DNA of 64,000 bases, from NCBI GenBank assembly GCA_951406725.2, contig OX597832.1:4774001-4838000 (forward strand). The letters are read 5' to 3'. The notes beneath the pieces were generated by a model. That model was not told the origin of the DNA, searched no databases, and worked only from the letters and a program-made list of their open reading frames with translations. Origin of the DNA: Octopus vulgaris (taxonomy: Eukaryota). Of this stretch, positions 15,200-55,305 are shown one piece after another; positions within the stretch are counted from its first letter, which is position 1; each line of letters begins with the position of its first letter. A program made the position numbers and the translations under genes.

Positions 15200-15633
15200 A
15201 TTGGTTTCAAATTTTGGCACAAGCCAAGCAGTTTCAGGGTATGGAGTAAGTCAATTGCACTGACTCCGGTATTCAACTGGTATTTATTTTATTGACCCCG
15301 AAAAGGATGAAAGGCAAAATTTACCTCAGTAGAATTTGGACTTAAAACGTAAGGACAGACAAAATGCCACAAAGCATTTTGCCTGGCATGCTAACAATTC
15401 TGTTAAAAATAATCATATTGGTTTCAAATTTTGGCACATGGCCAGCAATTTCAGGAGACAGGGTAAGTCAATTGCATTGACCCCAGTGTTCAACTGGTAC
15501 CTATTTTATCGACCTTAAAATGATGAAAGGCAATGTCAACCTTGACAGGATTTGAACCCAGAACATAAATACAGATGAAATACCACTAAGCATTTTGCTC
15601 AGCTTGCTAACAACTCTGCTAGCTTGCCACTTT
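15200..15633 (-). mobile_element. Head-to-tail pair of SINE family A
   Basis: Two units, 15200-15403 and 15417-15633. Confidence 0.9.
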
Positions 15634-16196
15634 AAAAAGTATAATAATATTAATGAATATGAAATGAAAGATTTATCTATGCTAAAATATATTTAGATAT
15701 TAATATGCAGTGAGAAGTAAAAGATTTCTTGCATAAGGAATGTACTCAATGATTATTTCATCCATGTTAAAGACATTTCATTACTGCCACAAATTTGGCA
15801 TCCTGTGAGGATTCTTCATTTCTCTTACTGTCTTCTTTTCTTGAAAAGCTCCATCAATCACACTTAATTTCATTTATAGTTAAATGTGATTGACATAGTG
15901 ATTCAGATTTCATTGCCCGAAATAAGTATATACTTTTAAAGATGACCTAATTGTCAGATGTATATTGGCAGGTTAAGTGAAAGCATCCAATGATGGAATA
16001 TATTTGTTTGTTGCTAACACCAACAGCACAAACTGGAGATTGGATTTAAAGGAAACTGTGAAACAGAAAACTGTTAATTTGCATAACCTCATTGATAGCT
16101 ATGCAATTACACAATCTCTAGCCCACTGCTTCCTTGTGTGTGTGTATCAATGCTAGCAACCAACAATTGTCAGCTTTTGCTAATGAATACCTTTAC

Positions 16197-17376
16197 TTAA
16201 CCTTAGAGCATTCGGATTACTCTGCCAAATGTAATGGTTATTTATTCACATCATTTTGAATTAGTCCTGCATTATCTTGTAGCTTTAAGATTTTGATGAT
16301 GTGATTGTTATTTTTAGGATGAAATTTTAGGGCAGGTGTGAAAGGCTGGATCTGGCTATTATGAACATAAAACAGATAGAATATTTTGGCCTAGCACTCT
16401 ACACCATATGAGATGTCATCGGGTGTACCACAGGGATCTGTCCTTGGTCCCCTCTTGTTTGTGGCATACATTAACGACATAGATGCCAATTTAAAGAATG
16501 CCACAGTATTGAAATATGCAGACGACATCAAGCTGTACCTTGAAATCAAGAGGACAGATCCTGATGTCTACAACTCTTTCCTGCAATCAGACCTAGACAC
16601 AATGCAGCAATGGATCACAGACTGGCAACTGAAACTGGCTGTGGACAAGTGTACCACCATGCATTTTGGGAGAAAAAACCCTGCGTTCACTTACTCCCTC
16701 CACAACACTGATATCAAGAAATCCTCTTGCGAGCGTGACCTAGGCATCACTGTCAGCAGTGATTTGCGTTGGTCAAAGCATATCTCTAAGATTGTCAGGA
16801 AGGCCGAGGGTGTCTTGGCATCACTCAGCAGGTCTTTTGTTAGCCGCTCTCCAGCCATCTATTTAAAACTGTATACAGCTATGGTACGACCACACTTGGA
16901 ATTTGCATCATCAGTTTGGAACCCCTATCTTGCACAGAACATTGACCTCCTGGAATCTGTCCAGAGACGTGCAACCAAACGCATACCCTCCATCAGACAC
17001 CTACCATATTCTGAGTGCCTTGTTTCCCTGGGCATGGATTCACTGAAGCTCCGGCGTTTGGCGACGGACTTGGTAAACACCCACAAAGTTATCAACCACC
17101 TCACCAACAACAACACTGAACACCTTTTTGATCTCCATGTGTCTAACACACGTGGACATGCCTACAAAGTCAGAAAACAATACAGCTCCCATGACTTTCG
17201 GAAACATTTTTTCACGCTCAGAGTTGCTGAAGCATGGAATAAACTGCCTGCGTCAGTTGTTGACTGCCATGACACTGCATCTTTTAAGGCCCTCATGCTT
17301 TCCGAAATCCGCCGAAACTACACCTGATTATATATACACTTTAGATGAGTTGTAGTGCACCTGAGCACTGTACACA

Positions 17377-43503: not shown

Positions 43504-44784
43504 ATATTAAATCAATTTTTATTAATTTGGATTCCAGAGTTGTCTCTCTTGCTTTTCTTATCAAGAATTATCATTAATGGATTTTTTTTTTTTGTAAACC
43601 TTTTCATTACAGATATAATCTTAATTGGTCAAACATATTTTAAGCTCAGTACATTAAGAATGTTAACACCTACTTAAGTCATTAACACAGAGATCGTTTA
43701 AAATGTTATCCCTTAGAACACTGAAATTTACATTAGTGAGTGAATGTATACAAATTTAAAAAAAAAAACATCTAAATAATAGCCTTTCTTTAAAATTAAA
43801 TTTCTTAACAATTGTAACTTAAAGTAATAATGACGGGGAAAATTAGGAGGATTAACAATTTTCAGTTTATAATTAATTATTGATAAAACTTACTAAAGTA
43901 ACTATGCACCACTCCCAAAATGCATGGCTTTGTACCTATATGAAAAATCATTATTAATTATTGATTTAATTAATTTAATTAGCTTCTAATTAATTTGCTA
44001 CATAGTTCATTAAATATAATGACACTTATCAAAAATTATACTTGAATATTAAATTTTACATGTCATGATATATTCAGATTAAATAAATTAATGCCACAAT
44101 ATTATTTTATATAAATAAATAATTGGATTCATTCGTGTGTGTTTTTAATGAAAAGTTTATATGACTTATATTTCCTGTCCACAAACTAACATTACTTGTA
44201 ATCTTATATTCTGCTGATGATATTCCTCCAGAATATTATTTTAAACAAACTAGTTCATTATAAATATTAAACTCCAACCTTTTAATCAGATTTCCAACTC
44301 CATCAATCTGCCTTGTAGGCATAACTCTTGTGATTTAAGAAAGTAGAAATCCCAAAGATAAATTCATTCTCTCTCATATGCATGCATGTGTGAATGTATG
44401 TATGTACATACGTATGTATATATAAACATTATCAATCTGAGGCAAATTGTCTCACCTGGTCTATGATTTCCAGGTGTTTTAACAACCAGCGTTAATAAGG
44501 AGGTTTCCCTAAGTGCTGTCCCACAGCAAATATGGTGAATAAACAAAACACATACATTATGTATGCATGGTCAATGTTTACCTTATTATTGCTGCTTTAA
44601 ATTCATAATTTAATGTATATATATATATATTTCTACCCTTATGGGGCTTTATTTTACCGGAAAGTAATACATTTGTATTGCAATATTATTTTTCATTGAA
44701 AGTTTTTTCACTGTTCTCGATCAGCTAATGGCTAGGCATTCAGGCAAGTATACTGACATTGATGTGGCAACATTTGAAATATTA

Positions 44785-44855
44785 ATGCAGCTGATGAAGA
44801 CCGATCAAATTTACATTGTCAAACGTATTTGAAGAGTCAGAAACCGGTCCTGCAT
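44785..44855 (+). ncRNA. Minimal/dimer-type type I hammerhead ribozyme, predicted cleavage after GUC (C44849)
   Basis: AUGCAG CUGAUGA a GAC..UCAAAU..AUUUGA..GUC a GAA ACCGGU C CUGCAU: 6-bp stem I, extended stem II, palindromic ACCGGU stem III. Confidence 0.85.
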
Positions 44856-45426
44856 GATCCGAATCTGGGTTGTCCATTTATCAAATGGTCTTCCTAGAGG
44901 TAAGACAAATTTTTCATGTTTATTGCACACACACATACTCATCTTTGCTAGTATATACAGAGTGAAGCTTTACAATAGCGTCGTATTTGTATCGATTGCT
45001 ATTTTTTAGTAAATATTGGTGTCTTGTTGTACCACTCATCTGTTTATATGTGTGTGTGTGTGTGTTGTTGTGTTTCAGGAGTCTTTTTTTTTTTTGCATA
45101 ATAAACACATGCACTAGATATTCGTTCTTCACTCATTTATTACTGTTCTTATTTTAACTCACAAGGACAGAAAGTGTCACTGAAGAGGACACAGATGTGT
45201 GACATAAGATTTCCTGACAATGGACATGAGTTAAGATAAGAAGAGTAATAAACAAGTGAAGAACAAATATACAGTGCGAGTTTATTCACCAAAAATGAAA
45301 AAAAAAAAATGGCCATCCCAAAATAAAACAATGTCCATTTCAACACATGGTTTCACATCAGGAATGTCGCAACACAAATTCATAAACATATATATATATA
45401 TATATTAAATTATGAATATATACACA

Positions 45427-45535: not shown

Positions 45536-45582
<47 letters not shown>

Positions 45583-45594
45583 CCTGGGTATGCG

Positions 45595-45800
45595 GTTAAG
45601 AAATTTTCTTCATTTCCAATCTACCATGAAAACATGTCTGGTCATGGGGAAATATTTTTGCTTAGAAATAGGTGAGAGTTAGCAACAGGAAAGGTATCTG
45701 GTCATAGAGAATCTGCCTCAGTATATTCCATCTAGAACCGTCCAACCCATGCTAGCATGGAAAACGGACGCTAAACGAAGATGATGATGATGATGATGAT
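45595..45800 (+). mobile_element. RTE-tail-derived repeat ending in (GAT)n
   Basis: CCAACCCATGCTAGCATGGAAAACGGACGCTAAACG(GAT)n. Confidence 0.75.
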
Positions 45801-45832
45801 ATATATATATATGTGTGTATATTTATATTTAT

Positions 45833-46272
45833 ATAAATGTAAACATATACACTAACAGAGCCCTTAATCACCTAAAAAATGCTGATTGACAATTCTTAAT
45901 ACTGACGTCAGTTTCAGTAATTTCTGTTACCTCACCAGTTAAGACTAGCTCGAAATTTGGTTCTTTTTGAACTTGCTTCTCTATTAGTATATATGTTTCC
46001 ATCATCCAAATTAATGGATAATTTATCAATTCGTTAATGAATATACATAAAATTAATATAAACAGCACTTTGCTATGTTTCACCAAAACGGAGAATTATA
46101 TTTGTTACTAACTGTGACTAGGGTGTTAAGAACACCAACATAGCAAAAAATAAGAGCTAAAATGCTCTAATGCTGAGGTCAACACACATAAATGTAAACA
46201 TATAGACTAACAGGGACCTTAATCATCCAAAAAATGCCAATTGAGAATTCTTAATACTGACGTCAGTTTCAG
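45833..46272 (-). mobile_element. Partial tandem (~1.24-mer) of a 355-bp HHR-containing unit
   Basis: 45833-45917 repeats at 46188-46272 (offset 355); both copies contain the HHR cleavage-site half. Confidence 0.8.
45895..45943 (-). ncRNA. Type I hammerhead ribozyme with an A6G core change
   Basis: CUUAA CUGgUGA GGUAA-CAGAAA-UUACU GAA ACUG-ACGU-CAGU A UUAAG; all three stems pair; 12-nt palindrome in stem III. Confidence 0.8.
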
Positions 46273-46698
<426 letters not shown>

Positions 46699-53444: not shown

Positions 53445-53838
53445 CTCTTTTACTTGTTTCAGTCATTTGACTGTGGCCATGCTGGAGCATCGCCTTTAGT
53501 CGAGCAAATCAACCCCGGAACTTATTCTTTGTAAGCCCAGTACTTATTCTATCGGTCTCTTTTGCCGAACCGCTAAGTGACAGAGATGTAAACACACAAG
53601 CATCGGTTGTCAGGCAATACTAGGGGGACAAACACACAAACACACACACACATACATATATATATACATATATACGACAGGCTTCTTTCAGTTTCCGTCT
53701 ACCAAATCCACTCACAAGGCATTGGTCGGCCCGGGGCTATAGCAGAAGACACTTGCCCATGATGCCACGCAATGGGACTGAACCCAGAACCATGTGGTTG
53801 GTTAGCAAGCTACTGACCACATAGCCACTCCTGTGCCT
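53445..53838 (-). mobile_element. SINE family B, full length, young
   Basis: CpG-retaining reverse complement of 20387-20836. Confidence 0.92.
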
Positions 53839-53876
53839 ATATATATATATATATATACATATATACATGCATATAT

Positions 53877-55305
53877 ATAAATGTATAAGATGTACCCAGT
53901 GTAAGCTATGGACACATAAGAGGTGCAGCAATATCAAAGGAAGGCTAACTGGGAAGATAGTTTTTGTATGTGGCAGATGCTCTGGAGTAATAAACACTGA
54001 AAATGTGCAGAGAACAACTTCTGCCACAATCCAGGAAGAAAAACTACAAGTATTTGATAGCTTCCGTTACCTAGGTGACCAAGCAAGTAGCGGAGGAGGC
54101 TGTGCTGAAAGTGTAACTGCTAGAATAAGAATAGCCTGGACAAAGTTCAGAGAGCTCTTACCTCTGCTGGTGACAAAGGGTCCCTCGCTCAGAGTAAGAG
54201 GTAGACTGTATGACGCATGTGTACAAACACCCATGCTACATGGCAATGAAACATGGGTGGTGACTGATGAGCACATGCGTAAGCTCACAAGGAATAATGC
54301 TAGTATGATCCAATGGATGTGTAATGTCAGTGTGCATACTCAACATACCTTGAGAGAAAAGTTGGACCTAAGAAGCATCAGATGTGGCATGCAAGAGAGA
54401 CGACTGTGCTGTTATAGTCATGTGGTGAGAATGGATGAGGATAGCTGTGTGAAAAAGTGCCACACCCTAGCAGTTGAGGGAACCTGTCGAAGAGGTAGAC
54501 CCAGGAAAACCTGGGAGGAGGTGGTGAAGCACAACCTTCGAACATTAGTCCTCACTGAAGCAATGACTAGTGACCGAGACCTTTGGAAATATGCTCTGCT
54601 GGAGAACACCCAGCAAGCCAAATGAGACCATAAACCATGACCTATGCCAGGGGTCTAACCAGCCATCTTATGCATACATTTCCTTCATTGGACACTAAAC
54701 TCTGCTTCGAAGACCTGTTGAGGCAAGTGAAATTGAAATCGAAATCAAATTCACTGGCTATCATCCATACCGGTGGAGCACTAAGAGCATCATCGGAGCA
54801 TGATCATTGCTAGAGCAGCTGACTGGCTTCCATGCTGGTGGCATGTAAAAAGCACCATTCGAGTGTGATCATTACCAGCATCGTCTTACTGTCACGTGTC
54901 GGTGGCACATGAAAAAACATTCAAGCGAGGTAATTGCCAGTGCCGCTGGACTGGCTCCTATGCAGGTGGCATGTAAATAACACCATTTGATCGTAGCCGT
55001 TGCCAGTACCGCCATACTGGCTGATGCTAGGGTCGCCTGACTGGCGTCTGTGTCGGTGACACGTAAAAAGCACCAACTGATCATGGCTGTTTGCCAGCCT
55101 CCTCTGGCCCCCGTGCCAGTGGCACATTAAGAGCACTCACGGAGTGGTTGGCATTAGGAAGGGCATCCAGCTGTAGAAACTCTGCCAGATCAAATTGGAG
55201 CCTGGTGCAGCCATCTGGTTCGCCAGTCCCCAATCATCCAAACCGCCAGTCATCCAAACCATGCTAGCATGGAAAGTGGATATTAAATGATGATGATGAA
55301 GATGA
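53877..55305 (+). mobile_element. 5'-truncated RTE-clade LINE: open C-terminal frame to 54625, then 3' UTR with a tandem array and (GAT)n tail
   Basis: CTQCKLWTHKRC..CGRC, FRYLGD, ARIRIAWTKFREL, RLYDACV..MLHGNETW, RRGRPRKTW. Confidence 0.95.

Follow-up and report, generated by a model that had tools for sequence, protein, structure and literature searches.

A 355-nt hammerhead repeat in the Octopus vulgaris genome: a probable decayed copy of a non-LTR retrozyme-like family

On the minus strand of a 64,000-nt stretch of the Octopus vulgaris genome (the window), one and a half hammerhead motifs lie one repeat unit apart between simple repeats, which raises the question of what kind of element left them there. 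We consider it fairly probable that the locus is a decayed 1.24-unit copy of a many-copy, non-coding 355-nt hammerhead family whose intact members are likely non-LTR retrozymes mobilised by Penelope-like elements (PLEs).

The locus and its hammerhead motifs

A repeat finder located an 85-nt direct repeat (45833-45917 and 46188-46272) with a spacing of 355 nt, the two copies being identical at 77 of 85 positions (91%) and different at 8. The features of the locus, in the order in which the minus strand is read, are as follows.

46274..46698, no strand: 5′ flank, a purine microsatellite of 425 nt made of (GA)n, (AGA)n and (AAGA)n (TRF)
45833..46273, minus: whole element, 1.24 units of the 355-nt repeat; family similarity stops at 46270-46273 and the repeat at 45833
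46188..46272, minus: upstream copy of the 85-nt redundancy (repeat finder)
46249..46270, minus: 3′ half hammerhead from GAA onward, with the palindrome at 46267-46256, A17 at 46255 and the 3′ strand of helix I; predicted cut 46255/46254
45900..46254, minus: 355-nt monomer from cut to cut, with a predicted rod-like fold
45894..45944, minus: complete type I hammerhead (descriptor match); predicted cut 45900/45899
45901..45912, no strand: 12-nt palindrome without mismatch that makes up helix III and is unchanged between the two repeats; the core is an alternative pairing partner of its 3′ half
45833..45917, minus: downstream copy of the 85-nt redundancy (repeat finder); the element ends 67 nt past the cut site
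45780..45832, no strand: 3′ flank, AT-rich and of low complexity, then (GAT)7 (from the sequence)

The preliminary description had placed a 3′ half hammerhead followed by a complete one on this strand, two cut sites 355 nt apart, a terminal redundancy of about 85 bp and an A6G change in the core. All of these were recovered, the cut sites at the very positions that it had given.

The hammerhead numbering and the descriptor motifs used here agree with PMC4209133. The architecture of the motif is that of a type I ribozyme, with three helices around CUGAUGA and GAAA, an NUH triplet and an open helix I. In the downstream motif, helix I has 6 bp, the core occupies 45938-45932, the triplet is GUA with A17 at 45900, and helix II consists of 5 bp (45931-45927/45920-45916) capped by a 6-nt loop. 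The core is not intact at this locus, since its position 6 (45935) is G. An internal loop adjoins helix I in the predicted fold. A strict hammerhead descriptor matched once in the 64-kb window, and a relaxed one gave 2 matches in the window against 1 match in 40 dinucleotide shuffles. Rfam returned no match at the gathering score over the whole window and nine weak matches, none to a hammerhead family, when 45600-46400 was searched to E = 10.

The element begins inside helix II and stops 85 nt beyond one full round. No target-site duplication was found at its ends and no second copy of the unit within the 64-kb window. When preference for microsatellites was tested, the locus failed at a margin of 25 nt and passed at 40 nt (308 of 40218 overlapping intervals), the latter margin having been picked post hoc, which makes the test a weak one. 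The locus holds one and a half ribozymes, whereas two consecutive complete hammerheads are taken as the sign of an active retrozyme in bioRxiv 2026.07.22.740005.

Other features lie close to the element. The ordinary-complexity stretch directly 3′ of it, behind (GAT)7 (45580-45780), is probably another dispersed repeat, and the 51-nt arms of an inverted repeat at 45111-45161/45227-45277, separated by 65 nt and 86% complementary, have the look of a small MITE. About 1 kb from the element there is a second type I hammerhead on the plus strand (44785-44855, within approximately 44636-45047). Its CUGAUGA core is intact, A9 is followed by one additional base, helix II is long, helix III contains a palindromic segment of 6 nt, and cleavage at the GUC triplet is predicted before 44849; the design resembles that of the minimal ribozymes of PLEs. 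Its sequence is unrelated to that of the 355-nt unit, its orientation is convergent, and (TA)n and (GT)n runs flank it. The surrounding 412 nt show no unusual structure (folding z 0.0), and the reading frame upstream of it had no Pfam or Atlas match.

The family in sequencing runs and the age of the copy

Words of the unit were present in 20 sequence sets from eight studies and four organisms, two of the sets containing at least half of the words; no RNA set was listed among them, a blank that carries no weight as evidence. Contigs from 4 of the 24 listed runs were aligned to the unit at a likeness threshold of 80%: X1 and X3 are DNA from organism A, X7 is DNA from organism C, and the fourth run, from organism A, is guessed to be RNA. 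The matching contigs numbered 850 in X1, 1104 in X3 and 1150 in X7, most of them less than 90% alike to the unit, and 82 in the guessed-RNA run, where contigs are unable to reveal ends, strand or circles. The 355-nt unit is a many-copy family in two organisms. The poorly covered part at 45942-45975, where depth is low, was left unused, copy number was not read from contig depth, and the rows considered were 40 of 187 differences, 15 of 77 joints, 24 of 807 loose ends and 32 of approximately 3390 pieces. Pattern scans for the unit found no locus in viral contigs, metagenome contigs or prokaryote genomes.

The ribozyme core of the family is the standard one. At 45935, A6 accounted for 769 of 857 depth units in X1, 470 of 528 in X3 and 1237 of 1421 in X7 (about 87-90%), and for 14 of 21 in the guessed-RNA run. 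Among the loose ends listed, 13 contigs of X1 and 21 of X7 continued behind 46270 into the 5′ half of a hammerhead with CUGAUGA. The G10.1-C11.1 pair was restored in 39%, 71% and 64% of the family depth in the three DNA runs.

Two contigs repeat the unit at other loci. Record 18 of X3 covers 46172-45971 and then 46273-46107; 52 letters stand between the two parts, as many as in the window, which gives a period of 355. Record 29 of X7 covers 46075-46273 and then 46029-46188, with a period of 357. Each holds about 1.2-1.3 units, and the segment that is held twice differs from the redundant segment of the window; they are longer tandems or other permutations, a choice that contig ends cannot make. 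Since the period recurs at other loci and contigs cross the interior of the unit unbroken (record 26 of X7 from 45936 to 46191, and others likewise), the family closes on itself at approximately 355 nt. Of the permuted or multimeric copies with a CUGAUGA consensus that were looked for, the consensus and partial tandems with periods of 355 and 357 nt were found, but no contig with two complete ribozymes or a full dimer was present among the 32 of approximately 3390 pieces listed. None of the 15 of 77 joint rows listed came from the guessed-RNA run. Joints that go back from 46267-46273 to 45972 were not accepted by themselves as proof of a tandem, since a lone copy that extends through the ribozyme produces them too. 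The adjacent units of record 29 of X7 are unequally like the window (8 other letters in 160 and 35 in 199), and this contig is possibly a mosaic tandem of two subfamilies produced by template switching or gene conversion.

These results bear out the proposal of a retrozyme-like monomer made in the preliminary description: the family is of high copy number, its core is standard, the same period occurs elsewhere, and no coding signal was detected. The runs speak against a unit that exists in a single copy or is invariably joined to a coding PLE, given the copy number and the contigs with the same period elsewhere.

Depth was uneven along the unit, and one segment stood out in all runs.

46044..46180, minus: highest contig depth in the unit in all four runs, with the peak at the hairpin 46168-46153 (depth and fold)

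The depth over the ribozyme is far below that of this segment, and most matching copies therefore seem to lack the ribozyme or to be too diverged there. Below 46044 the depth dropped approximately 2.6- to 4-fold in all four runs, and among the loose ends listed, microsatellite-like ones clustered at 46041-46051 in 12, 9 and 18 contigs. At 46146-46179 the depth was about ten times that over the ribozyme in the three DNA runs, with a peak in the fourth run too; this part may be common to other families, or it may be the best-kept site for binding a protein.

Comparison with the family also dates the copy. A6G is carried by a minority of the family, and changes of the CpG-decay type make up 12 of the 40 listed differences from it, both of which agree with the aged copy that the preliminary description had suspected. 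The unit has 4 CpG, against 14 with the family letters. The two 85-nt repeats are 0.10 apart (Jukes-Cantor) and, on an Octopus scale in which 0.09 corresponds to 25 million years (PMC13282606), the insertion would be approximately 14 million years old if the repeats were identical at insertion, an order of magnitude only, computed from 8 differences of which 3 are at former CpG. As for the ribozyme, A6C lowers hammerhead cleavage in Mg2+ by orders of magnitude (PMC7151607), and changes at core position 6 give low activity (PMC3088659); no published assay of A6G was found among the matches listed. Because its sole catalytic half carries A6G and a weakened helix II, the copy at this locus is likely dead.

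Predicted folds of the monomer and of the palindromic helix III

The cut-to-cut monomer has a GC content of 31%, or 36% with the family letters. It folded better than its shuffles (z -3.2, with 0 of 100 shuffles lower, and -3.9 in a separate run), and 2 of the 30 control windows tested, out of 105 eligible, scored a lower folding z. The plus strand reached -4.4, so that the fold does not tell the strand. One control window, 15621-15975, had a folding z of -5.3 (20 shuffles), with only two short inverted repeats around it.

When the 38 listed family letters were put into the unit, the minimum free energy (MFE) went from -86.7 to -119.8 kcal/mol and 89 of 116 pairs were kept, this sequence being an unphased composite from 40 of 187 differences in which a few letters are not the majority in every run. 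Random letter sets of the same types, drawn with CpG context left free, had a mean of -79.0 (sd 5.1), and 0 of 200 reached the MFE or the kept pairs of the family letters. In these models the family letters strengthen and preserve the same rod-like fold. Two arms are common to the folds of the window and of the family.

46196..46240, minus: 5′ arm of long helices continuing helix I and linking the monomer ends; pairs with 45998-45957
45957..45998, minus: 3′ arm of the same helices; pairs with 46196..46240

The outer long helices can also form locally around one ribozyme. Changes on both sides of a pair were found at 46142/46074, where two transversions held 96-98% of the X1 depth, and in helix II at 45929/45918, which is U-A here and C-G in the family; neither is of the CpG type. 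The pairs 46239/45958 and 46229/45968 lie on paired arms and reflect CpG decay, so they were not counted as covariation; nor, for that reason, was 45925/45916 of the masked fold.

The palindrome in helix III offers a second way to fold. The energies that follow are nearest-neighbour predictions in which tertiary contacts and proteins play no part. For a single-strand ribozyme, pairing of the core to the 3′ half of the palindrome was favoured over the active fold with the window letters (-11.3 against -4.6) and with the family letters (-14.5 against -9.2). With two strands and the family letters, the best structure was a double hammerhead with a shared 12-bp helix III, at -34.1, while two masked monomers came to -29.0. 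With the window letters a better fold (-27.6) than the double hammerhead (-24.9) existed. The downstream catalytic half and the upstream half site, given the family letters, formed a complete ribozyme as their best structure, and the two palindromes paired with each other in the predicted fold of the whole 441-nt transcript. The palindrome is thus predicted to mask the core in the monomer and to free it in the dimer.

Palindromic helices III have precedents. Dimer action through them is established for animal and viroid hammerheads (PMC4209133), and in newt satellite 2 and the avocado sunblotch viroid, which form double hammerheads, they favour cleavage of the multimer over that of the monomer (PMC4209133, PMC3088659), as predicted here. 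In those two cases the monomer is held to be inactive because helix III is unstable; here a helix III could form in the monomer, but the core is the predicted partner of the palindrome. A stem of 1-2 bp with a loop of 2-4 nt is the usual helix III in animals (PMC4209133), in place of the 12-nt palindrome of this unit. For some mussel circles, masking of the ribozyme is predicted too (PMC7229834). It is doubtful, though conceivable, that the octopus family makes a 355-nt circular RNA in which one 12-nt palindrome would lock the core in the monomer or circle and would build the double hammerhead in the tandem. If so, a 1.24-unit insertion would suffice to release a monomer, one catalytic half serving both sites, and the sequence itself would encode an answer to why the retrozyme circles of animals escape re-cutting.

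Origin of the element and its relatives

No coding signal was found in the unit, which is probably non-coding. Two unit frames retrieved 0 of 19 protein candidates at E ≤ 10, in a search that is weak for short decayed queries, and no Pfam family was found in the unit frames, which are likewise short and decayed. The single match of a 75-aa frame among 1.84 billion representatives was rejected as spurious, for it consists of a six-fold low-complexity repeat within a cytochrome b fusion. The synonymous share of the family changes was 8/29, 8/28 and 12/24 in the three minus frames, without synonymous bias. A stop-free frame of 76 codons crosses the ribozyme, and an equal run was seen in 194 of 2000 shuffles. 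One unit frame was presumed to resemble the end of a PLE GIY-YIG endonuclease; the likeness was rejected because there was no protein or Pfam match and the family keeps stops there. No reverse transcriptase (RT) plus GIY-YIG open reading frame (ORF) was found in or adjoining the element, which is not an autonomous PLE, although a remote PLE origin is possible.

Retrozymes are known from mussels, corals and salamanders. Non-LTR retrozymes have units of about 150-450 nt with a GC content below 45-50% and one type I ribozyme each, and those of mussels, of 350-390 bp, are expressed as circles (PMC7229834). The unit agrees with this description in size, GC content, ribozyme type, copy number, self-pairing and lack of coding signal, and the family most likely works like, and belongs with, the metazoan non-LTR retrozymes. 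Those of Mytilus galloprovincialis (PMC7229834) are the closest in kind, with one type I hammerhead per unit of 350-390 nt, GC content below 45%, a self-paired monomer, many dispersed copies and a mollusc host; this likeness is one of description rather than of compared sequences, and the locus differs by its 1.24 units and its mutated core. The PLE-derived retrozymes of vertebrates (Li, Clavereau, Pollet, bioRxiv 10.64898/2026.07.22.740005) likewise carry type I ribozymes, occur as monomers or short tandems a few hundred bases long, and are found in PLE-bearing genomes. That work covered 31 vertebrates, 3 insects and 1 anthozoan and no mollusc; 8 of the 9 dimers tested in it failed to cleave, and the present locus falls outside what it calls active.

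For retrozymes it has been described that tandem transcripts self-process and that the monomers circularise, with PLEs as the proposed, unproven helper (PMC7229834); O. vulgaris has Penelope-like families with recent insertions (PMC13282606). By analogy with this literature, tandem transcripts of the octopus family would cut themselves once per unit, the released monomers would close into circles, and a Penelope-like RT would write a little over one turn of the circle into DNA that is AT-rich or made of microsatellites. A greater-than-unit cDNA made from a circle would explain an element that starts in helix II and ends 85 nt past a full round. A linear tandem template explains it as well.

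Such a template is the basis of an alternative that we think unlikely, namely that the same non-coding family behaves as a mini-PLE whose linear tandem transcript is copied from an internal start downstream of the ribozyme, circles being absent or a by-product and the redundancy an ordinary partial tandem of the pLTR type. Reverse transcription of the anole PLE does begin internally, 111-118 nt into the ORF with the ribozyme cut at +26, and its ribozyme is not needed for insertion in vitro, where ribozyme mutants insert normally (PMC11167929). PLEs are known to have non-autonomous derivatives that carry pLTRs and occur as head-to-tail copies (PMC8557442), and the octopus element stops 67 nt past the cut. 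The pLTR hammerheads of PLEs, minimal or with a palindromic helix III (PMC4209133; PAc, PMC11167929), resemble the locus in their partial tandem arrangement, type I fold, dimer-type palindromic helix III, end a short way past the cut and AT-rich or microsatellite setting; the locus differs from them in that its ribozymes do not enclose an ORF, A9 and 10.1 follow one another without an additional base, helix II has 5 rather than 7-8 bp, and the unit closes on itself after 355 nt. A preferred 3′ end is weakly suggested by the fall in depth at 46044 and the loose ends at 46041-46051, but the 3′ end of this copy lies elsewhere. The conserved long helices join the ends of a cut-to-cut monomer, as they would in a circle, although the outer ones also form locally, and the family keeps an intact core and the covariation in helix II, which speaks for the retrozyme reading.

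It is quite improbable that the redundancy arose at the DNA level, by trimming of an array among microsatellites or partial duplication of a single copy, in which case the shape of the locus would be uninformative on the inserted cDNA. Both ends abut unstable simple repeats with no target-site duplication found, tandem repeats have been proposed to arise where a PLE terminus is amplified locally (bioRxiv 2026.07.22.740005), and 4 letters foreign to the family occur in both repeats, each homologous site being counted once. All 4 are of the CpG-decay type, however, so they need not mark a late duplication, nor do they prove one template; another CpG decayed oppositely in the two repeats. Moreover, a duplication puts the 3′ half ribozyme exactly one period upstream only if the unit was already circular or tandem. 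Very improbable, in our judgement, is a pair of 5′-truncated ends of an autonomous coding PLE in tandem, in which the spacing of 355 nt would be accidental and the upstream sequence the end of a GIY-YIG frame. PLE insertions are typically truncated partial tandems with pLTR ribozymes and a preference for microsatellites (PMC8557442, PMC4209133), and the 76-codon frame runs through the ribozyme. Against this stand the same period at other loci and in a second organism, the protein and Pfam searches with their one spurious match, read with the caution due to short decayed queries, the lack of synonymous bias in any frame and the frequency of such a run among the shuffles.

The element would be of a known kind that apparently has not yet been described in cephalopods, and repeat libraries may carry the family under another label. 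No title or abstract on a hammerhead, retrozyme or Penelope repeat family of this type in octopus or cephalopods was found in a search that mostly lay outside subscription papers. The words octopus and cephalopod do not occur in the main text of PMC7229834 or in two supplements of PMC4209133, although other supplements of these papers and those of the bioRxiv preprint may list cephalopod motifs, and the word ribozyme does not occur in the main text of the cephalopod repeat surveys PMC13282606 and PMC8967140. The locus itself is ordinary, a likely dead copy of a known class; the family would extend non-LTR retrozymes to cephalopods. It offers a test case for the mobilisation of such units by PLE proteins, proposed in PMC7229834 and bioRxiv 2026.07.22.740005, and for how the ribozyme of a circle is kept from cutting, a question that the discussion of PMC7229834 leaves open.

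The window also contains LINE fragments on its plus strand. The one at 16395-17327 had an RVT_1 match (E 1.3e-17), and the one at 53825-54625 was PHD-like plus post-RT. The named relatives of the stretch 53870-54622 were mostly from Octopus bimaculoides and O. vulgaris, with 67-81% identity over 19-55% of the query.
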